The notes below the pieces were generated by a model that did no database searches, was not told the DNA's origin, and saw only the letters and a list, made by a program, of their open reading frames with translations. Shown here piece after piece: positions 5,241-63,736 of a DNA stretch of 64,000 nt. The DNA is from a virus, in IMG/VR virus record IMGVR_UViG_3300003323_000920. One strand, 5' to 3'. Every line of letters begins with the position of its first letter. The first letter of the stretch is position 1. A program made the position numbers and the translations under genes.

Positions 5241-6809
5241 TTAATCTTCCCCCTCTTCTATACCGAAGTATTCCATTGCGGCAGATTGACCTATTGCTTC
5301 CAGAAAATCATCTTTTCCAAAATGTCTAATGATATCAGTGATATCAAAATTATCCAATATTTCACCTTGCTCTGCGCCTACAATCGTGACATAATTTCTA
5401 CTAGAGCTATGTGATACAGTTATTTCTTTGGCTTTGATTTCTAAATCCATATTATTTTTGTTTTATTAATTCAAGTTCCTTTTTCTCTACAACAGTAAAA
5501 GATCCAGAAATTTCATGTATAACTTCACCATTTTTCAATGACCCATCTTTCAACCACAGCTCTAAATTATCCTTATCACCAATCCATGTAAATTCCCCCT
5601 GATAAGGGTAATCATGCTGTACTATATAATACTTTTCGATCTTATCCATTGTATTTAACATTAAAAAATTGAAAGGCTTCCGAATCCTTTTCTATACTGT
5701 GACCCCACTCCCCATGTGCAGTATTGTAAACCTTACTCAGCCTTCCATTATCGAAAATTAAATCGTAGGCTACATACATATATTCTTCTTTACCAAATTT
5801 ATTGTAGAACAAATATCCTCTTGTTTCTCTCTTTGTCGTTGTCATATAATACTAGAAGTTAAATTAGTGGCAGTGGCATTCGTCTTGTGGAAACATATCA
5901 TCCTCAAAATTCGTTGTATCCATAGTAATGTGAGAATTAGAAAAAATAATTCGTGCTATATAAGATGTAAAGTTATCAGACAATACATCTTTTACAAAAG
6001 GCAATTCCAATTCTGCGTTATCAACTATCAATTTCATTTTGTGTTGAGTCTTATCTCCATACTTCCAAGGAAGGCTTCCAATCCAATATTTTTTTATTGA
6101 TTCATTCCTTGTTTCGTAGCACTCATGAAAAGTAATCTCATACTCCTTACTCTTACATGATATTTTCACATTTAACCAATTAAATGGCGATCCATTCTCT
6201 TCAATGGATAAATAGTAGTCTTTCGGATCGTCCTCATCCATATCTTCGATAAACTGCTTTAAAATGTCAGAGAAATTAATCTCTTTATCTACTCGTGTCA
6301 GAATTTTACTAACTACCGGTATAAAAGATTTGGCAACAGCTGTATTTGCAATTAAATCGATTTCTTTACTCAATTTATCATTGATCAAACTAACTATATC
6401 CGGCAATTCCAAACCATGACCGACCTCCTGCTTTTCCAACTCTGCTTTTAATGCTTTGCGATATGGAGAACCGTATCCGCTGTAAAATTCCTTGATCTCC
6501 TCAATTGCTCCCTTCATAGCAAACTCATTAGCCTTCTGTTTGAGAGCTTCGGTATCAATCATTGGTAATATTTCCATTGTGTTCATTTTATTTTGTTCCT
6601 TTTTCATAAACTACTTTTGGATATTTAGATTTCTCAACCAACTGATCAACTTTTGCTTTTGCTTGCGCAAAGGCTGAATCACCTACACACTTATCAATGG
6701 TAACCCAATCATAATATGGTTCCCTATCTCTTGGATCAGAAAATGTAGGTTTGTATTCTTGCACTTCATATTTCGATTCTTCAGTTTGTACAACACGATA
6801 CTTACTCAT
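5241..6809 (-). other. five hypothetical ORFs (5241-5450, 5452-5661, 5642-5845, 5864-6607, 6588-6809)
   Basis: Co-oriented, abutting ORFs from the ORF track; no motif recognised. Confidence 0.55.
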
Positions 6810-27565: not shown

Positions 27566-29091
27566 ATTGGTTTTGAATAAGTTCTTTTAAATTCTCTATG
27601 ATAAATGATAATTTTTCCAATAAATAGCTAATGTATCCGAAGCCTTAATTATACCATTTTTCTCCAATGAAATCACAGTTCGTAAGTTTACTGGATCCAT
27701 GTCCCCACCTTTACCATTCCACACTAAATATGCCTTTTTATTATATGGGCTAATAAAAGTTTTCAAGCTATATTCTCCGGATTGCAATTTCTCAACAATG
27801 TCTTGTTGGGGTTTACTTAATTTTTTCATTTTTAATCCGGTTTTTAAGTTCGTTTACTTTATACTTTTTAGCACAAGTTTCACATACTGGATTATTTGTT
27901 TGTTCATGCCACATATCAGTTGTTTGTAAGCAAAATACACATTTTTCGTATACGTGTGTATTTTCGTACATTTCTGCTGGCTCCTTCTTAATAGGTATCA
28001 TATGTCAAATGGTTTATTTTAATTTGGCAACCGCTTTCGCCCAAGCTTGGAATGCTTTACATTCATTACATGTAATTTTTTTATCTGTTTCCATGTAATT
28101 ATATTCATCCATTGCTATACCACATGCGGTATAATTATCATCAGCACCTATAAGGTGGATTTTATTATCTACATTTTTATCATAATGGTTACCATCGGTA
28201 TTAATTCCACTGTGACCTTTGAATTCAATTTTTCCTATTTCCATATTCATTTTATACCTCCCTTACTTACCGACTAATATTACTTATTTCATCTGTCTTA
28301 ACTTTTTTACATTCTTCAACAATTCTCTGGCATTTTTCACATGTTACTCTTTTTTTGGTCTCTTTGGCTGATTCATATTCCAAACTGGAATCACCAGTAG
28401 TATCCATGCCGCATAATGTATAATCAAAAGAAGGATCTTCAAAATGAACAATTGAAGTCTTAGTATCGTTATGTTTAATCAATAAGTGTTTCATTTGACA
28501 TAATTTAATTGTAAAAGTTTATTACGAATAGTTAAATCTTCTTCCTCCGGAAACACATCAGCCAAATTTAAATAATTTTCATCAGAATAATACACTTCTG
28601 ATACGGGATCCTTTTTATCCTGGTTAACAATGACAAATTGAATATCCTTATTAGAATATACTCCCTGAACTTCACCGTCCTTTATCTCAATTAAAACCTT
28701 AGTCATTCATAAAAATTATATTTACCTTTCTTTTGTCTTTTAACAAGGAATGGAAGTCAGGGAGGTCATCATTTCACTTTTTGTTTGATGAACATTTTCC
28801 AAAATTAAGTTTTTAAATTCACTTAGGGTTAAACCTATACTTAACTCCATGAAACCATTTACAATAAAAAAAGTATGTGAATTTCTTTCGCGTAAAAACC
28901 TGATTGAAATCTTCAAAACATCGTGAATATAATGTTCAACTCCATATAATGAATCGACTTTGAAATGTGAATATTGTACATCTAGTGGAGTTGCACTTTC
29001 TTTCCAATAATGTCCCATTCTAAATCCAAGGGTTATTAACCAATCAGTGAAATGAGAATACACAGTTAAAAACTCTTGTCTTTTAGCAATT

Positions 29092-50800: not shown

Positions 50801-50978
50801 AAATAAATGGGCAGGATTTATAGCTGTTTATTGGGATGGTAAGCTGGCATACATAGCAGAATTAGATGAAAAATTAGATAAATACCGTGCGGCCGGTTTT
50901 GAATATTTACCAGGTCTTAGTGAGGCCAGAACAGAATTAACAATAGTTTATTATCACATTACATGGAAGAAAAAATGA
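44817..50978 (+). other. plus-strand array of about 24 small hypothetical ORFs
   Basis: Abutting co-oriented ORFs, several with Zn ribbons (47436-47711 CPKC...CKEC) or TM segments. Confidence 0.6.
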
Positions 50979-51385
50979 TTTTAGCAGTAATAGGATCTAG
51001 GACATTTAAAAATAAAAAAGTCATTTATCAGGCAATAGATGAAATACGTGAGAAGTATAATATTACAGCTATAGTATCCGGTGTTTCCAAAGATGATACC
51101 AATGACACTGGGCCTGATACATATGGGCGAGACTATGCCTTAGATAATAATTTAGAATACATTGGATTCCCTGCGGATTGGGATAATATGGATCCACCCT
51201 GCGTAATTAAGTATACAAAGTTTAACAAACCATATAATGCACTTGCAGGATTTAACCGCAATACAAATATTGCAGAAACCGGATTTTTAGGATATGCTAA
51301 ATGGGATGGTAAAAGTAAAGGAACTAAAGATACAATAGATAAAATGACAGCATTGGGTAAAGAAGTAATAATTGATCTTTATTAA
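50963..51385 (+). CDS. SLOG-superfamily (YspA/DUF2493-like) protein
   Basis: LAVIGSRTF, IVSG, GPDTYG..YA, FPADWD, AGFNRN, WDGKSKGT. Confidence 0.8.
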   Translation: MEEKMILAVIGSRTFKNKKVIYQAIDEIREKYNITAIVSGVSKDDTNDTGPDTYGRDYALDNNLEYIGFPADWDNMDPPCVIKYTKFNKPYNALAGFNRNTNIAETGFLGYAKWDGKSKGTKDTIDKMTALGKEVIIDLY

Positions 51386-51618
51386 TGGAAGAAAAGAAAT
51401 ATTATATCCGCGATATAGAAACTGGATGGCCTACTGAAGTCAGTAAAGAACAATGGGAACTTTATCAGCAACTATTGGAATGCTACCGACCCAAATTATC
51501 TGATAATTTCAAAGGTAAAGTAATAATATTCGGAACAGGTGGTGATTTAGAAGGAGGAGATAACTTTAAACAATTATTTTATAATAATGACTTTAGAACA
51601 GGTAACGATTCAATTTAA
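51385..51618 (+). CDS. small ORF containing a TerL ATPase-domain fragment
   Basis: KVIIFGTGGDLEGGDNFKQLFYN aligns with TerL IPVLVGTGGSFEKGNDAKRFFEN. Confidence 0.6.
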   Translation: MEEKKYYIRDIETGWPTEVSKEQWELYQQLLECYRPKLSDNFKGKVIIFGTGGDLEGGDNFKQLFYNNDFRTGNDSI

Positions 51619-52380: not shown

Positions 52381-52548
52381 ATGTGCAACAAAGTAAAACA
52401 CAAGACTACTTACGGAGCAGCAAAACATGCAGATGCATTACGTAATAAGAAGAAATTCAAAAATAGACAGATAGGTATTTACTGGTGTTCTTCATGTGAA
52501 GATTATCATATCACCACTCATCCAGGTAAAGGATGTATAATAATATGA
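52381..52548 (+). CDS. small Zn-finger-like protein (55 aa, not in ORF track)
   Basis: MCNKVKH...IYWCSSCEDYHITT; stop overlaps the next ATG (ATGA). Confidence 0.55.
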   Translation: MCNKVKHKTTYGAAKHADALRNKKKFKNRQIGIYWCSSCEDYHITTHPGKGCIII

Positions 52549-52883
52549 ACAGAAAGAATGATTGCATTGCCTGCCGATTTAAAAGGGATGGGGTTAAAAC
52601 CAGAAGGGCTTTAGTACATACATGTGGTAAATATATAAAGGAATTGCCGCCGGTAAACCCAAATAAGGAATACTACGTAAGTTGTGATCTGTATGATAAT
52701 ACTTACGGGCCTGGGGCAATACTGGTTATGAGTAAAAGTGAAGATGGTAAAACCTTAAAGGTTGAATACTCTACAAACACCACCGTTAAGGATTTTAAAA
52801 GAGAGGTGTTAAGAATAGCTCAATATTATAATGCAGTACCAATATATGATGAAGTTACAGAGAGATCGATGAATAATAGTTAA
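52533..52883 (+). CDS. Zn-module fused to a TerL nuclease-domain fragment (likely start 52545)
   Basis: ELPPVNPNKEYYVSCDLY...GAILV...EVLRIAQYYNA aligns with TerL residues ~433-517. Confidence 0.65.
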   Translation: MYNNMNRKNDCIACRFKRDGVKTRRALVHTCGKYIKELPPVNPNKEYYVSCDLYDNTYGPGAILVMSKSEDGKTLKVEYSTNTTVKDFKREVLRIAQYYNAVPIYDEVTERSMNNS

Positions 52884-52916
52884 AAGAAAACCCCGCAATT
52901 AGCGGGGTTATTTTAT
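52883..52916. terminator. bidirectional terminator between convergent arrays
   Basis: aaaaccccgc-aatta-gcggggttatttt with A- and T-tracts on both sides. Confidence 0.85.
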
Positions 52917-55129
52917 TCTTAACATTTTACATATCCATCGAAAGTCGTTAATATCTTGACATTGACCCCGATAAACCCGATCTGCAAAATTACTATCCCA
53001 TATCTCCAAAATACTATTCGGTCTATATTCAGCCACTGTATAAGTAGCTTTATAAATCGTTCCATCATTAGCATTAAATATTCCAGAGAAGGTCCAATTT
53101 TCTCCTAGCCCTTTAATGGATTCCCTTACTTGATACCATCCCGGCTCCTTTATCAAATCGTCAATTGAAAACAGGGAAACTCTGAATTGAGCATACCCAT
53201 CATCTAATGCAATAATAGCCTCTTCTAAATCATGAAGATATGTACCATCCTCATCTTTCAATTGGATAACTTCCTTATCAAAAATTTCCACATAACCTCT
53301 AGCCCAATTAACTTCTCCTTCCCAACCTATCCTCAAATCTTCTATATCAGGGTAATAATATTTATCAACTTCCCACGTTTTCATATACTCTTTATAGTAC
53401 TCTTTGTTTACCTCAGTTTTCTTACCTGTCCGCTGATTGCAGATGTAGTATTTATTCTCCATTTTTCCATTTTAAATATGACCGAATAAAAACATACATG
53501 TTAACTCCTCTTTCATTTGTCTTTTCTACAAATGTATCAAGTAACTCCGGAGCATTATCTGATATGTCCTCATATAAGTCATGTAAGAAATAAATGTTAC
53601 GACGTACTTTAGCATTAAATGGAGAACTCCAATACTGGCTTTGATACATATAAGGCTCACCTCCATATCCTGCATCGGGTCCATAATCCAATTCATCGTA
53701 TTCTACAATCCTATACCAATTTTTATAATTGCTATTTTCATTACTAGGGTCTTCCCTTACTCCGAATGTTCTTTCTCCGAATTCTCCACACCCGGCCCAA
53801 TATTCTGTAAATCCTAGTTTATCCAGAACACCGGATGTGATAAGTAATTCTGTAAAAGGGAAAGGATATATAAGTGTTTTATTTTCCATTTAATCTCATT
53901 ATTAATTTTGAAAGATCTGCAAATTCATAATAGTCCATCCAAATACTCACTTCCACACTATCTTCCTCATTATACTTTACAAGATTTATAATGGAAGAAG
54001 TACTATGATGGAAGAAATCCCAAGTTCCCTTCTCCGATTCCGCATTTACCAAATTATGCCAGATTTCATTGTCCATTGTCGATTTCTTTAACTGTTAAAA
54101 CACTGAGAGGTAATTTTCCCATCTCAGTATGGCAAAAAATAATTGATCCTATTATTTCATCAGATAATCCTTCTTTCCTACAAGTATCTACAAATAATTT
54201 TGCCCCATCTTCTCCTGTTTGAGCAATAATATTTCTCTGACCAGGCATTGCGATTTTTTCTTCACTATCACCTATCTCATAGCAATAACCTGGAAGTATT
54301 TTATCTTTTAATTCGTCTTCGCTCATTTCTATTTATTTACAATGGGATCATCACCCTCAATACCCCATTTAGTTACTATTAAGAAACCATCTTTTACATA
54401 GTGAAGAACTATTGGATCGGGTATTTCTTTATATGCAAATACTCCGTTCAATTTATATCCTTCCATATGCATTTCAGATTTCGGAGCACAAATGAAAAAT
54501 GGTATTTTTACTCTATGTCTATTATTATAGATACTAAATTCTCGATTTACACGTTTTTCTTGTTCAACCTCTATATAACTCTCTACATGTGCGTTTTCGC
54601 TTAATGCAGCATTTGGATCTACATACCAACTACTGCTAGAAGAATATATATAATATCTATCATCATCACTCACTTTAAATGTTTCCATTTCCTTTAAGTT
54701 CTTTAAAGGTATGTCACCTTTATACATACCAGCCATACCACATATTAGTCCATACTTTTCGCATATTTGTTTTATTTGATCTAAAAATATGAATTTATAT
54801 TGGGGATATTTCTCTTTGTATTTATTAACAATATTAGCCTTCTTTTTAGCTGCATTATCTATTTCAATCCGTTTCTCCAATTCTCTTACTTGAGCAGTGT
54901 GAGTAAATCCTAATTTTTGCATCAATTGGGCCTTCTCCTTTTTGGTTTCTTCTATCCCTTTCTGACTTAAAATAAATAAAGCCTCATTGAGAGCACGATC
55001 CGCTGCACTATCAAACTCATTGTGAATCTTCTCAATCACATTAGATGTTTTTGCTTCCTGTGGAACAGTTCCGTCTGTTACGTTTTCTACAATTTTATTT
55101 TTTAGTTTTTTTAAGAAGTTAAATTTCAT
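52908..55129 (-). other. hypothetical ORFs (52908-53462, 53452-53889, 53879-54076, 54066-54326, 54329-55129)
   Basis: Co-oriented coupled ORFs; 54329-55129 has a recognisable phage family pattern (ICEKYGL...DPIVL...LIVTKWG). Confidence 0.6.
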
Positions 55130-55829
55130 ATACTTTTTCTATTAAATCAATTTGATTGTTATCATTTAATGTTATTAACCAGGGATTATTTATAGGACTA
55201 TAATCCTCATCGCAAATAGCACCGTTTAAATACGCTGTGCTGCTCCAATCGTGTATACCATATCCGAAATGAATATGACCTGATAAATGCAGCATTGGAG
55301 AAACCTCATTTATTCTTTTTCTTAAATCCTCACACCCCACTCTTTGCCCATTCATTAAATCATCTAATACTCCATGTACTGGCCCATGAGTAACCACAAT
55401 ATCTACTTTATCGGGGATATTTTTCCATACTTCATTAATCTCCTCTCCCCTATCCTTATTAAAGGCCCAAAACTCTTTTCCGAATGATGGGGTAACTGGA
55501 GAACCCCAAATAGTTAATCCTTCAATTTCACAACTACTATTTTCTAAATAATAATTCGTTCCACAATTCTTAAATTCCTCTAACGCCTCAACTAACCATT
55601 CAGGTTTCTCTCCAGTTGGGTTTTTCTCAGGATCAAATGATCTGTCATGATTTCCTGCAATAAAAACTCTATAGGTTGCCAGTTGTCTTTTAAACCATTT
55701 CAAAAATCGCTCAACCTCTCTCCTTTCGCCTACTCCCGAAATATCTCCTCCACATATTAAAAGGTCACAGGGGGGAATTTTTACTTGGTCATGGAAATTA
55801 TGAGTATCTGAAAAATATATTATTCTCAT
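55119..55829 (-). CDS. calcineurin-like metallophosphoesterase
   Basis: SDTH, ICGGD, IAGNHD, VTHGP, GHIH. Confidence 0.92.
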   Translation of the reverse strand: MRIIYFSDTHNFHDQVKIPPCDLLICGGDISGVGERREVERFLKWFKRQLATYRVFIAGNHDRSFDPEKNPTGEKPEWLVEALEEFKNCGTNYYLENSSCEIEGLTIWGSPVTPSFGKEFWAFNKDRGEEINEVWKNIPDKVDIVVTHGPVHGVLDDLMNGQRVGCEDLRKRINEVSPMLHLSGHIHFGYGIHDWSSTAYLNGAICDEDYSPINNPWLITLNDNNQIDLIEKVYEI

Positions 55830-56260
55830 TCGTTCACTTTTTCTTTCAATATTCCTAATTCGACGAATTCATATCTCACAGCTACCCAGTCCACATATGC
55901 TCTTGGATGTATCGGAAATTCCTCATCATAGAATACACCATCTATATTGTAGATTAACGGGCATCCTATTGCCGCATCATCCACATAACGATGAGCATAA
56001 ATTTTTGGAGATTTCGTCCAAATTTTCTGGGAAGGATTTTCATTCACGCCATATAACTCAATACCTCTTTTTTTAAACCAGTTAGCAGCCTCCTCCAATT
56101 TCTCATCTGATCTCATCGTGTTAAGAATGATTTTATGACCATTTGCCTGGATATCAAGTAACACATCCACTGCATCTGGTACATCCTTACCAACTAATGG
56201 GTAATCGTGGGTTACAACGGTCCCATCAAAATCTACAGCTATATAAACCTCCTTATTCAT
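55826..56260 (-). CDS. HAD-superfamily hydrolase-like protein
   Basis: IAVDFDGTVV motif I; ILNTMR; YVDD. Confidence 0.85.
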   Translation of the reverse strand: MNKEVYIAVDFDGTVVTHDYPLVGKDVPDAVDVLLDIQANGHKIILNTMRSDEKLEEAANWFKKRGIELYGVNENPSQKIWTKSPKIYAHRYVDDAAIGCPLIYNIDGVFYDEEFPIHPRAYVDWVAVRYEFVELGILKEKVNE

Positions 56261-61377: not shown

Positions 61378-61695
61378 ATGCCAAGAAAGAAAATCTATGT
61401 TGAGATGGAATTGGAGTGGGCTGAAGTACAGCTCCACAATTGGAGAGAATATATAGATGCCAATCCTATAGACCTTTTAACTGATAGAATTGAATGGGTG
61501 GATGGAAAATATGGATTAACCCCCAAAGTTATTCAATCAAAAGAAAATCAAATAAAGTCTGTTCAAGAAACCCTCGTTAAATATCTAACCCTTTTAAAAG
61601 AAGTGAATGAAATGCGTGAAGGTAGAGAAATGAGGGTAGCAGCCAAAGGAGATATAGAAATACCCCATAGAATGAAAAAGTCTGATGGAAATTAA
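61378..61695 (+). CDS. conserved protein directly upstream of TerL (possible small terminase)
   Basis: Position and helical character only. Confidence 0.35.
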   Translation: MPRKKIYVEMELEWAEVQLHNWREYIDANPIDLLTDRIEWVDGKYGLTPKVIQSKENQIKSVQETLVKYLTLLKEVNEMREGREMRVAAKGDIEIPHRMKKSDGN

Positions 61696-63736
61696 GACTA
61701 CAGAATTTTTTAAAAATTATCATCTACTGCCTAAAAGAAATACCCCAGAATTCGAGCAATTAGTTGACGAAGAAATTGAGAAATGTAAAGGTGGTGTTAC
61801 AGTCAATGGAATATACTTTTCCGGTTGGCTCTATTTTTATTTGAACCATTGGTGGATTCGTGTAGATAAAAAAGATAATTACGGAAATATTGTAAAAGAA
61901 CCCCTCCAACCATATTTAAGGGATAACGAATGGATCCGGTCAGAAGCTTTAGAACAATGTCGCCAACAGATGAAAGGCTACATGGAAATTGGTCTAAGGC
62001 AAGGTGGTAAATCTGAATTTGAGGCATCTATTACTGCTTACAATGCATTAATGTTCAAAGATACTCAAAATGTAATTGTTGGTGGTAATGATCCTGACTT
62101 AGGATTGTTAAAAGATAAAATAGATTTTGGTTTAAAAAGAGTTTGGGAAGGACTGGCAATTCCCCGGTTGGATAAAGACTGGAGGAAATCGATGGTCAAA
62201 TTGGGCTATAAACAAAAAGATAATGAAGATGAAATATGGTCCTATTTAATTATCAGAAACGCAGATGGGGGCGATAATACCGAAGCACCAGCAGGTACAA
62301 CCGCTAAATCCTTTGTAATGGATGAAGTGGGTAAATACGAATTTAGTCCTGTATTTACCGCCGCAAAACCTGCATTTATATCAGAATTTGGTTGGCGAAC
62401 TATTCCAGTATTAGTAGGAACTGGTGGTTCTTTTGAAAAGGGGAATGATGCCAAAAGGTTCTTTGAAAATCCAGAAGCTAACAACTTCTTAGCATTTGTT
62501 GATCCTGAGACTGGAGCTAAAACCTGTCTTTTTATGCCGGGGTGGTATCGGCAAGATTGTAAATATGATACAACATTAGATAGGTTTCTTATAGATGTTA
62601 GGGGAATGGAACTCAGTGATGTTTCTGAATTATCCAAGATTCCTATTAAAGTTGCCGATAAAGAAAGGGCCATTGCCAGAATAAAAGCTGATAGAGAACA
62701 AAAAGCAAAGGATCCAGATCAAACAGATTATTTAAAGGAAATAATGTATCATCCGCTTACTACTGCGGAGTGCTTTTTATCTTCGGCTACAAATTTTTAT
62801 AATGGTGAATTAGCAGCAAAGCAAAAGACCAAATTAATTGAAAATAATGTTACTGGATCCTGTGTATTTCTAAAACACGATGGTGAAAAAATAATACATG
62901 AATTTGTTCCTCATAAACGACCTATTTCTTCTCACCCAGTTAAAAAAACTGAAGATTTAGATGCCCCTATTGTGATCTGGGAAATGCCCATCTCAAATCC
63001 ACCATATGGTCTTTATGTAGCTGGAGTTGACCCATATAGACAAGATCAAGCTACTTATAGTGATTCGTTAGGGGCTGTATATATATATAAAAGAATGCAT
63101 GATATTGCTGGGGAAAAATTGCAAGATGCATTTGTTGCGGCGTATGTTGCCAGGCCAAAAGACAAAGGTAAATGGGAAGAGCAAGCCCGATTACTTATAA
63201 AATATTATAATGCGAGAGCTTTGTGTGAAAATGATGAAATAAGTTTTATTGATTACATGATCGACAAAGGAGATGAGCATTATTTAGAACCGCAGCCCGA
63301 TTGGCTTAAAACTATTGTACCTAATTCCAAAGTGGATAGAAAAAAGGGTATTCATAGGTCAAGTGAAAGTATAAGAACACACCTCAGAGGTTTATTCAAA
63401 ACCTATATGGAGGAAAAAATTCACACAGAAAAAGATGAACATGGTTCAATCATAAAGGAAACCTATGGTATTTCCCGCGTACTTGATCCAATGTTGTGTG
63501 AAGAAGTTGCTACTTGGAATATAGATGGAAACTTTGACCGTGAAGTTGCTGCATCCCTGGCAATCGCACAGGCCAGGCATATGGATCCAAGAATTGGAAA
63601 AGTTAATTCAGCCGAACAAGATCCTCGTTACAAATCCTACTTTGAAAGAAATAAAAGTAACCCCACTTCCCTTTTTAAAGAAAAGAAAAACAGTACAATA
63701 CGAAAAGGAAGTAGAATAAAAAGATTATTTAAATAG
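61685..63736 (+). CDS. terL: terminase large subunit
   Basis: Walker A GLRQGGKS, Walker B FVMDE, VGTGG, nuclease VAGVDPY, YYNA...EN, GNFDR. Confidence 0.93.
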   Translation: MEIKTTEFFKNYHLLPKRNTPEFEQLVDEEIEKCKGGVTVNGIYFSGWLYFYLNHWWIRVDKKDNYGNIVKEPLQPYLRDNEWIRSEALEQCRQQMKGYMEIGLRQGGKSEFEASITAYNALMFKDTQNVIVGGNDPDLGLLKDKIDFGLKRVWEGLAIPRLDKDWRKSMVKLGYKQKDNEDEIWSYLIIRNADGGDNTEAPAGTTAKSFVMDEVGKYEFSPVFTAAKPAFISEFGWRTIPVLVGTGGSFEKGNDAKRFFENPEANNFLAFVDPETGAKTCLFMPGWYRQDCKYDTTLDRFLIDVRGMELSDVSELSKIPIKVADKERAIARIKADREQKAKDPDQTDYLKEIMYHPLTTAECFLSSATNFYNGELAAKQKTKLIENNVTGSCVFLKHDGEKIIHEFVPHKRPISSHPVKKTEDLDAPIVIWEMPISNPPYGLYVAGVDPYRQDQATYSDSLGAVYIYKRMHDIAGEKLQDAFVAAYVARPKDKGKWEEQARLLIKYYNARALCENDEISFIDYMIDKGDEHYLEPQPDWLKTIVPNSKVDRKKGIHRSSESIRTHLRGLFKTYMEEKIHTEKDEHGSIIKETYGISRVLDPMLCEEVATWNIDGNFDREVAASLAIAQARHMDPRIGKVNSAEQDPRYKSYFERNKSNPTSLFKEKKNSTIRKGSRIKRLFK

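Follow-up and report, generated by a model that had tools for sequence, protein, structure and literature searches.

To our knowledge, every terminase nuclease domain described so far is a complete RNase H-like domain joined to a packaging ATPase. The RNase H-like fold is a five-stranded mixed sheet, in the order 3-2-1-4-5, with flanking helices; TerL nuclease domains with solved structures are those of T4 and RB49 gp17, P74-26, G20c and E217. In the packaging ATPase gp16 of phi29, the nuclease domain has kept the whole fold and lost the catalytic residues. This domain has been described as vestigial (PMC7672431), and on that description it is a descendant of the terminase nuclease fold that is retained for a role other than cutting. 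TerL is a binding target of several host sensors, namely Avs1-3 and Upx; SeAvs3 binds the nuclease domain in its folded form and reads residues of the active site (PMC13601566). Two proteins of phage DruSM1, ORF55 (a ligase) and ORF83 (DprA/Smf-like), are inhibitors of TerL-sensing Avs systems (bioRxiv 10.1101/2025.06.06.658234); neither resembles TerL and neither is described as a decoy. We found no description in the literature of a TerL fragment acting as a decoy, nor of such a class of decoys.

Here we describe a mini-protein that joins a predicted zinc module to the first half of a TerL nuclease domain, encoded in a 64,000-nucleotide stretch of DNA (the window; IMG/VR record IMGVR_UViG_3300003323_000920) whose source is a crAss-like phage. 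The phage keeps a complete TerL as a separate gene (ORF 61685-63736; phrog_6681, E 6e-76), and the mini-protein is encoded 9 kb away from it, in an accessory array that holds many small ORFs. Whereas the nuclease domain of phi29 gp16 stays joined to its ATPase, the mini-protein is likewise a probable descendant of this fold, yet a free-standing half of it with the first acid kept. A family of stand-alone TerL half-nuclease fragments has not been described before.

The ORF as listed, 52533-52883 on the plus strand, encodes 116 residues and proved real, as the original prediction had it. Its true start is probably the ATG at 52545, because this second Met begins all homologues and the ATG overlaps the upstream TGA as ATGA; a database entry (P0019) also holds the resulting 112-residue form. 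The ORF whose stop overlaps this start (Table 1) is 96% identical to its counterpart in a related contig, L007, and matches phrog_14788 (E 7e-5); its match to DUF2197, E 0.0011, lies below the cutoff. The hairpin that follows the mini-protein gene closes both the plus-strand array and a minus-strand array that converges upon it.

Table 1. Features of the mini-protein locus and of the corresponding terL segment (positions in the window)
Feature	Position	Strand	Basis or remark
SLOG protein gene (PF10686)	50963-51385		Pfam family; same array, 1.2 kb upstream of the mini-protein
Mini-ORF, 77 aa, resembling TerL ATPase segment (residues 189-264, including GTGG motif)	51385..51618	+	hhalign
Cys-rich, zinc-ribbon-like ORF, 55 aa	52381..52548	+	stop overlaps mini-protein start
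Mini-protein gene, 112 aa (probable start)	52545..52883	+	homologue starts and database entry
Predicted zinc-knuckle module, C-x2-C-x14-H-x-C-G, basic-rich	52563..52628	+	ligands invariant in copies
Module homologous to the N-terminal half of the TerL nuclease (RNase H-like) domain	52647..52871	+	hhalign, PHROG, AF2
Bidirectional intrinsic-terminator-like hairpin, 8 pairs, 6 of them G-C	52889..52909	.	directly after mini-protein stop
terL segment homologous to the module, residues 435-522, start of nuclease domain	62987..63250	+	profile alignment

The original prediction aligned the mini-protein with TerL residues ~433-517, and the motifs that it quoted sit where it placed them, in the mini-protein and in TerL. 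As a single sequence, the mini-protein is not significantly similar to TerL. BLASTP against the window TerL gave E 0.78 over 16 residues, and Smith-Waterman alignment of the whole protein with the whole TerL, judged against shuffles, gave p 0.36 at gap costs 11/1, with p 0.014 and 0.002 at 8/1 and 6/1. The single sequence scored E 0.11 against the TerL profile and matched nothing in Pfam and PHROG below E 0.05, while an HMM of the module run against the window in six frames recovered its own gene only, TerL scoring E 0.36. The link between mini-protein and TerL is transitive, through homologues. A profile of 10 module copies compared by hhalign with a profile of 22 TerLs gave a probability of 90.9% (E 1.2e-6), module columns 4-78 being aligned with TerL 435-522. 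In the controls, E was 0.2-0.3 for reversed alignments and 0.04 for the best of 40 shuffles of the columns; with the window's own protein and TerL left out, or with three distant TerLs only, E was 4e-6 to 1.3e-5. When 25 family members were scanned singly against 38,880 PHROGs, seven matched the TerL family phrog_6681 (best E 4e-7), always at profile positions 518-609, and no other PHROG family was matched by more than one member. The invariant positions of the two families (Y, D, Y, G, an aromatic and YNA) coincide. No TerL was among the matches when the module family was searched as a profile against PDB; the best match, TrwC relaxase (E 0.04), was judged to be due to chance. The proposed homology is thus upheld, in the same register, by profile-profile comparison and by the PHROG scans of homologues; as to alignment against shuffled controls, the pairwise comparison fell short at standard gap costs and the family profiles stood up to their controls. 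We consider it very probable that the opening part of a crAss-type TerL nuclease domain gave rise to the C-terminal ~75 residues and that the N-terminal part is an unrelated CCHC knuckle.

The homology covers the first ~88 TerL residues of the nuclease domain of the crAss-like/Cellulophaga clade (PHROG 6681), and the order of elements, the strand-1 acid, the G-A of strand 2, the aromatic that starts helix 1 and the YYNA motif are the same in both. Residues D52, G61-A62 and Y98-Y99-N100-A101 (116-residue numbering) are aligned with TerL D449, G463-A464 and Y507-Y508-N509-A510, and D449, G463, Y508, N509 and A510 of TerL are invariant in the 22-TerL alignment. Of 18 module copies, 15 have D and 3 have E as the strand-1 acid, and a second acid, a conserved D, stands three positions after it. 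In the window protein, D105 is aligned with TerL E515, the second carboxylate, which follows strand 4; the tail is poorly alignable, however, and several members end earlier. The protein itself ends 11 residues past D105. It lacks strand 5, the later helices and the third catalytic Asp, as does every family member: all members either end ~0-12 residues past helix 1 or strand 4 or continue into unrelated tails, and truncation is a trait of the family. Relative to TerL, the mini-protein also lacks the beta-hairpin and the N-terminal ASCE ATPase domain with its Walker A and B motifs, in place of which it carries a Cys/His module of 30 residues.

The fold predicted for the mini-protein agrees with this alignment. 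An AlphaFold (AF2) model built from a 25-row alignment had a pLDDT of 77.7, with 84-91 over the TerL-like module; the model made from the single sequence (pLDDT 52) was too poor for use. In the model of the module, an entry strand with E-x-P precedes strand 1, which bears the acid; strands 2 and 3 come next, then helix 1, closed by YYNA, and a short strand 4. The first half of an RNase H fold has this same order (strand-strand-strand-helix-short strand). Two proposals, that the first catalytic Asp strand, the GA and the YYNA are kept and that the rest of the fold is missing, are both confirmed, the former by the aligned residues and an acid (D or E) in every one of the 18 copies, the latter by an end ~10 residues after the strand aligned to TerL strand 4 and by the elements that the model contains.

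The best structural neighbours of the model were mostly RNase H-like (poxvirus resolvase, RuvX, RNase HI, the RNase H of reverse transcriptase and TerL nucleases), with weak scores. Of 48,161 chains compared, the 12 best included five TerL nuclease domains, which gave the longest alignments, at Z 4.9-5.1; the residues aligned to the model numbered 78 for G20c, 80 each for T4 gp17 and RB49 gp17, 77 for P74-26 and 68 for E217. RNase H-like folds also dominated the Foldseek list (E >= 0.02 against PDB), and TerLs were frequent among matches in a viral structure library. These fold scores (Z <= 5.7) overlap those of unrelated small alpha/beta proteins, for example an ACT domain of aspartate kinase (Z 5.3) and AcrIF5 (7eqg_J). 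The latter, a free-standing phage protein of ~77 residues, was the top VIA-align match, with 66 residues placed on model residues 40-111 at Z 5.7; at 9% identity it has no sequence relation to the mini-protein, and its score, tied with those of many unrelated rows, is not functional evidence. By analogy, AcrIF5 suggests that a comparably small alpha/beta unit may be able to stand alone. Prediction of a homodimer from two copies (alignment A4) gave a score of 0.01, mark 0.42, which speaks neither for nor against a dimer.

The N-terminal ~30 residues form a predicted CCHC zinc knuckle unrelated to TerL. Residues C7, C10, H25 and C27 (112-residue numbering), together with an A, a T and a G, are invariant in 17 copies (alignment A5), in which the ligands are spaced C-x2-C-x13/14-H-x-C; within the window, the C-x2-C/H-x-C motif of the mini-protein occurs once. 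No relative of the zinc module was found among Pfam families or PDB chains: in a PDB profile search with it, cytochrome c-552 was a chance CxxC match and the nuclear-receptor rows were weak. Elsewhere, the zinc module occurs alone, in proteins of 47-84 residues, twice in one protein (P0016) and, in one relative (L006), as a separate gene adjacent to the module gene on its upstream side. Two family members (P0015 and P0144) carry a different Cys-rich N-terminus in place of the CCHC knuckle, and in a further relative (L009) a different small Cys protein is encoded upstream of the module gene. The predicted zinc partner is thus constant but interchangeable. The CxxC...HTC module of the original prediction is thus borne out by its four invariant ligands, and the claim that it is an unrelated unit fused in front is supported by its occurrence solo, in tandem or as an upstream gene.

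The distribution of the mini-protein in relatives had been proposed as a check. There are ~20 metagenomic homologues, at identities of 30-63%, and in the related contig L007 the gene is in the same position, ~9.5 kb upstream of terL. Comparison with the L007 orthologue gave pN 0.18 and pS 0.82 (pN/pS ~0.22), and the mini-protein is thus under purifying selection. One homologue (P0003) has two TerL-like module copies in tandem. Neighbourhoods vary: the L009 module gene has a NinG-like gene as neighbour, and that of L006 lies at the edge of phage DNA, beside bacterial-type genes. A tblastn search for cultured phages, in 50,697 phage records, gave nothing below E 2, and a wider scan of genome contigs returned one Bacteroidota MAG contig only, which was already among the known relatives. 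Two long proteins were rejected as spurious relatives, as their scores in an exhaustive phmmer search were summed over repeats: P0006 (1531 residues), with weak likeness to a tandem repeat unit, and P0011 (1960 residues, NACHT-LRR), in which the unit resembles leucine-rich repeats.

A remote member of the family is encoded by an isolated phage, Cellulophaga phage phi18:3, as gp038 (YP_008241231.1, 116 residues, hypothetical). It was matched by the module HMM at E 8e-6 in a search of that genome and by hhalign at E 2.5e-6, and Foldseek superposed it with an rmsd of 1.8 A over 64 columns; phage phi19:3 has a similar protein, present in BFVD. Like the mini-protein gene, that of gp038 is the last of its array before a converging array, and it overlaps the 3' end of a tyrosine integrase gene. 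Unlike the mini-protein, gp038 lacks a zinc module, and Ser replaces its strand-1 acid.

The array that holds the mini-protein contains a second candidate TerL fragment, 1 kb upstream and on the same strand, the two fragments standing in TerL order. In a scan of all 261 window ORFs against the TerL profile by hhalign, this 77-residue ORF scored best (E 9.9e-6), and its sole PHROG match was TerL phrog_6681 (E 0.015). The next ORF, 27596-27829, scored E 0.002, no better than noise across 261 tests. BLASTP of the 77-residue ORF against the window TerL was not significant, and no homologue of it was found in viral contigs or related loci; resting on one sequence, the proposed link to the ATPase segment is weaker than that of the mini-protein. 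Three other small ORFs of the window, at 54066, 56401 and 58255, were considered as candidate capsid fragments and had no PHROG match. The SLOG and DprA/Smf families form one superfamily. The array contains a SLOG gene, and the DruSM1 inhibitors are likewise small accessory phage genes, directed against terminase-sensing immunity. This context fits an accessory or counter-defence array; an anti-Avs role for the mini-protein is conjecture.

The reading that we favour, tentatively and at somewhat less than even odds, is that the mini-protein mimics the nuclease face of TerL and acts by binding only, without catalysis; we infer the lack of catalysis, the mode of binding and the target. On this reading, the mini-protein alone would cut no DNA. 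By presenting the face of the TerL nuclease domain that holds the conserved active site, it would occupy whatever normally recognizes that face, be it a host TerL sensor or a packaging partner or regulator. The basic zinc knuckle, whether fused to the module or encoded beside it, could cover the exposed side of the half-sheet, hold nucleic acid, or both. The absence of half of the fold and of one of the three carboxylates, together with the loss of the strand-1 acid in a remote branch (Ser in gp038), argues for a non-catalytic reading and for action by binding. Against it, the retention of the strand-1 acid in all 18 copies, together with the second acid, could mean metal binding and catalysis with a partner that completes the site; and the DNA-transaction neighbours, NinG-like in L009 and the tyrosine integrase in phi18:3, count against a role in packaging or defence. 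The more specific proposal that the half-domain and the 77-residue ORF are decoys or antagonists of host TerL sensors of the Avs1-3 or Upx type is doubtful; in that case, the fragments would present the active-site features that sensors read without permitting the sensors to oligomerize.

The same acids and neighbours can be read in another way, as those of an autonomous DNA-binding or processing factor for recombination, integration/excision or replication, in which the knuckle would bind DNA and the half RNase H module would oligomerize, or pair with another protein, and so bind or cut DNA that is branched or nicked. We regard this as possible, with roughly one chance in four. The module is invariably accompanied by small, basic, Cys-rich modules of a kind typical for nucleic-acid binders, the tandem modules of P0003 are as expected for a dimer function, and the position of the L006 gene at the edge of phage DNA would suit such a factor as well. 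Nevertheless, every member lacks the third carboxylate, strand 5 and the later helices, gp038 has lost the strand-1 acid, and the neighbourhood varies between relatives, with neither an integrase nor a NinG gene near the mini-protein in the window.

Alternatively, the mini-protein could be a terminase modulator that docks on TerL, TerS or portal and either times or restrains the phage's own cutting or poisons the motor of a competing phage or satellite. Its descent from the same TerL clade and its co-occurrence with it (direct in L007, only deduced for P0005/P0022 and P0014/P0024) argue for this, as does the second TerL-like fragment in the array. We know of no TerL oligomerization or portal surface on nuclease strands 1-4 (T4, P22, P74-26), which counts against such docking, and the gene lies in an accessory array, away from terS, terL and portal; we consider this role unlikely.

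That the likeness to TerL is convergent or due to chance, the module being an unrelated small strand-strand-strand-helix-strand domain, would be in keeping with the pairwise statistics, the module HMM score of the window TerL, the PDB profile search and fold-search Z scores of ~5; but two independent profile methods, whose controls were clean, gave E values from about 1e-6 to 4e-7, TerL was the sole family matched repeatedly, the register did not change from test to test and the invariant positions match, and we hold this explanation to be very improbable. Still less credible is a decaying, functionless remnant of a duplicated terL: the mini-protein is a fragment of a larger gene with a second such fragment upstream, but its ORF is intact, its motifs are conserved in ~20 divergent relatives, pN/pS is low, start-stop coupling and a terminator of its own are conserved, and the module is reused with different partners.

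These observations describe a half-domain that carries the first metal-binding residue of the TerL nuclease, copied out, joined to interchangeable zinc modules and selected in a clade of Bacteroidota phages that keep an intact TerL, and they raise the structural question of how half an RNase H fold stands alone. Should the protein prove to be a minimal nuclease or DNA-binding unit, it would be a new minimal derivative of that fold. If, as the favoured binding-only reading would have it, the fragment titrates a recognizer of TerL, this would be the first phage found to mimic its own conserved 'pattern' protein with a piece of it, and would bear directly on phage escape from immunity directed at immutable proteins.

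The window comes from a phage genome whose minus strand carries DNA polymerase, helicase and primase genes; the nearest cultured relatives of its large terminase (TerL) are those of Leptolyngbya phage Lbo-JY46 (38% identity), Cellulophaga phages phi17:2 and phi4:1, and crAss-like phages. The ORF predicted to encode a mini-protein, with a Cys/His zinc knuckle preceding a TerL-like module, is present and comes last in an array of small plus-strand ORFs spanning about 44.8–52.9 kb. Because all homologues start at its second Met, the database form has 112 aa, and ATG 52545 shares ATGA with the TGA stop of the upstream 55-aa Cys-rich ORF, the true gene is most likely 52545–52883. That upstream ORF is 96% identical in related contig L007 and 82% in IMG/VR locus L006, while its neighbours are far lower, at 62–66%.

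Coordinates of the mini-protein gene, its surroundings and two related loci
Feature	Position	Strand	Description
SLOG-family protein	50963–51385	+	140 aa; in array of mini-gene; Pfam YAcAr PF10686, E 1.5e-9; phrog_289
ORF resembling TerL ATPase segment	51385–51618	+	77 aa; in array of mini-gene
Cys-rich ORF coupled to mini-gene	52381–52548	+	55 aa; zinc-ribbon-like family, phrog_14788
Mini-protein ORF	52533–52883	+	116 aa from first Met
Bidirectional terminator-like hairpin	52889–52909		directly after mini-gene
Calcineurin-like metallophosphoesterase (PF00149, E 2e-11) and phosphoheptose-isomerase-like protein (phrog_1238, E 3e-31)	55119–56260	-	in array converging on mini-gene
Large terminase TerL	61685–63736		683 aa; phrog_6681, E 6e-76
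Split mini-gene (knuckle gene and module gene) with bacterial-type genes just downstream	5998–6443 and 6900–7950 of L006		IMG/VR contig 3300012924_000013
phi18:3 gp038	1279–1629 of L014; 18215–18565 of NC_021794.1		hypothetical, 116 aa; remote module homologue

When the mini-protein was compared directly with the window TerL, BLASTP reported a 16-residue piece only (E 0.78), and the single sequence matched a TerL profile with E 0.11. The Smith–Waterman optimum was the alignment originally predicted, but its score at gap costs of 11/1 was ordinary (p about 0.35; 500–1000 shuffles), and lower gap costs gave values that are suggestive only (p 0.014 at 8/1, 0.002 at 6/1). Since it is not significant against shuffles, the pairwise alignment fails by itself; judged from the two window sequences alone, the resemblance is not beyond chance.

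Evidence for homology comes from the family. Exhaustive phmmer against 1.84 billion representatives gave 16 matches and a profile search of a 5.8-billion-protein collection gave 17; of the phmmer matches, two long proteins with repeats were rejected as artefacts of summed repeats. About 20 proteins make up the true family; they share 30–63% identity with the window protein, and every one derives from a metagenome or a Bacteroidota MAG. Aligned by hhalign, 10 module copies matched 22 crAss-type TerLs with a probability of 90.9% and E 1.2e-6, module columns 4–78 lying on TerL 435–522, which reproduces the predicted register (~433–517). Reversing either alignment gave E 0.2–0.3, and the best of 40 column shuffles gave E 0.04. 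The match persisted when the family was enlarged to 18 copies (E 1.1e-5), when the window protein was removed (E 4.1e-6), when the window TerL and its three closest relatives were removed as well (E 4.2e-6), and against Leptolyngbya, Cellulophaga and crAss cr50_1 TerLs only (E 1.3e-5). As an independent test, the 25 rows of the family alignment were each scanned alone against all 38,880 PHROG families. Seven matched phrog_6681, the family of the window TerL, always at profile positions 518–609, among them homologues P0010 (4e-7), P0145 (4.4e-6), P0146 (6.8e-6), P0144 (1.1e-5), P0007 (3.8e-4) and P0015 (1.1e-3); one further row matched TerL phrog_979, and no other family was matched by more than one row. 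As phmmer ties the window protein to these members with E 1e-7 to 1e-30, its homology to TerL is transitive but firm.

In the hhalign register, family-invariant module positions coincide with TerL positions that never or hardly vary: Y47 with Y444, D52 with D449, Y54 with Y451, G61 with G463, F88 with W497, and Y99-N100-A101 with Y508-N509-A510 (116-aa numbering). The first catalytic Asp strand, GA and YYNA are retained, as predicted. On the strand corresponding to TerL strand 1, D449 is the only acid that never varies, and we take it to be a catalytic metal ligand by analogy with T4 gp17 D401; among 18 module copies this position is Asp in 15 and Glu in three. The second invariant acid of TerL, E515, is aligned to D105 in the mini-protein, in a region where family tails diverge and several members end earlier. 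For the third, D618, the mini-protein has no equivalent, since its chain stops 11 residues past D105.

The Cys/His module in front is indeed separate. Its four ligands (C-x2-C-x13/14-H-x-C-G) are invariant in 17/17 copies, with G, K and R conserved between them; it also stands alone in proteins of 47–84 aa and occurs as two tandem copies in homologue P0016. It has no relative in Pfam or PDB. The TerL-like module is fused to this knuckle in the window protein and in homologues P0020, P0005, P0141–143, P0004, P0007 and P0003 (the last with two tandem modules after one knuckle), is fused to a different Cys-rich N-terminus in P0015 and P0144, and is free-standing in P0010, P0014 and P0145–147.

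An AlphaFold model from the 25-row alignment (pLDDT 77.7 overall, 84–91 over the module) has strands at 43–49, 57–64 and 71–79, a helix at 81–94 and a two-residue strand. The module as modelled corresponds to the N-terminal half of an RNase H fold, and the remainder is absent, in agreement with the original prediction. Foldseek of the model against PDB found nothing significant (best E 0.02), with a list that was mostly RNase H-like: poxvirus Holliday-junction resolvase, RuvX, RNase HI, retroelement RNase H, RB49 gp17 and D6E TerL. All-against-all VIA-align placed five TerL nuclease domains within the top 12 of 48,161 chains: G20c (78 residues aligned), T4 gp17 (80), RB49 gp17 (80), P74-26 (77) and E217 (68). 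Four of the five gave the longest alignments in the list; their Z of 4.9–5.1 is no proof alone, as AcrIF5 and an ACT domain score equally high. TerLs recur among matches in a viral predicted-structure library, where the best rmsd (1.7–1.8 Å over 64 columns, E 3e-3 to 8e-3) belonged to small uncharacterised proteins of Cellulophaga phages phi18:3 and phi19:3. A homodimer prediction returned no answer and was counted neither for nor against.

Relatives occur in related phages. L007 carries a 63%-identical orthologue at the same array position, with a 682-aa terL lying about 9.5 kb downstream; pN between the two genes is 0.18 against a saturated pS of 0.82, which indicates that the gene is under purifying selection. 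In L006 the knuckle and module are adjacent genes with one base in common, and the knuckle protein ends in the same short tail as the fused P0007. Neighbouring genes there are inverted relative to the window, and bacterial-type genes resembling, by eye, UbiX and type II 3-dehydroquinase lie just downstream; L006 may represent the end of a prophage or be an assembly chimera. In locus L009 a free module overlaps by four bases a preceding gene for a different small Cys-rich protein and is followed by a NinG-like gene. A remote homologue without a zinc module, gp038 of cultured phage phi18:3, is picked up by the module HMM (E 8e-6 within its genome) and by hhalign (E 2.5e-6). Its strand-1 acid is replaced by Ser; its gene and the 3' end of gp037, which encodes a tyrosine integrase, overlap, and a repressor gene faces it. 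From the matching lengths of their contigs, P0005/P0022 and P0014/P0024 may likewise be mini-protein and TerL pairs, each from one phage. TerL homologues P0024 (1078 aa versus ~680 in relatives) and P0083 contain a LAGLIDADG domain (PF14528), suggesting inteins or homing endonucleases inserted in terL of this clade. Under table 11, terL has 11 in-frame stops in crAss phage cr52_1 (L003), where a tRNA-Gln gene lies just upstream of the annotated terL, and eight in cr130_1 (L005); these fit the stop-codon recoding known from some crAss-like phages.

A second ORF in the array, 51385–51618, matches the TerL profile with hhalign E 9.9e-6 over TerL 189–264, the GTGG motif included, and is a clear outlier among the 261 ORFs of 50 aa or more in the window (next, 0.002). 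Its sole PHROG match is phrog_6681 (E 0.015); BLASTP against the window TerL was not significant, and related loci and viral contigs gave no homologue. It is a probable but unproven TerL ATPase-like fragment. A reading of other small window ORFs as capsid fragments found no PHROG support.

We consider the TerL homology and two-module architecture of the mini-protein very probable. Its function is less certain. The main rival to the reading that we rank first is a DNA-binding or DNA-processing factor; zinc modules, conserved acids, a module duplicated in tandem and the NinG and integrase neighbours speak for it, and the lack of half the fold and of the third carboxylate against it. Action on the phage's own terminase ranks third. 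That the protein is a decoy against host sensors of TerL seems unlikely. Avs1–3 and Upx are such TerL-binding sensors; for SeAvs3, recognition of residues of the active site and binding to the nuclease domain in its folded state have been reported (PMC13601566). The known anti-Avs3 proteins, a ligase and one that is DprA/Smf-like, both listed in the EVADES preprint (bioRxiv 10.1101/2025.06.06.658234), are not TerL mimics. The DprA/Smf-like protein and the SLOG gene product presumably belong to the same superfamily, and a link between them is a lead only. In the literature searched, we found neither a TerL nuclease half-domain that stands alone nor a TerL fragment acting as a decoy; the nearest concept is the phi29 ‘vestigial nuclease’, which remains attached to the packaging ATPase (PMC7672431).

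The reading placed first is a TerL mimic, because of descent from the TerL active-site face, the setting in a small accessory-gene array that includes the SLOG-family gene (PF10686), and the companion ATPase-like fragment. Given the truncated fold, the absent third carboxylate, Ser in place of the first acid in phi18:3 gp038, and the shuffling of zinc partners across the family, such a mimic would act by binding rather than cutting, a mechanism that we propose tentatively and at somewhat less than even chances.
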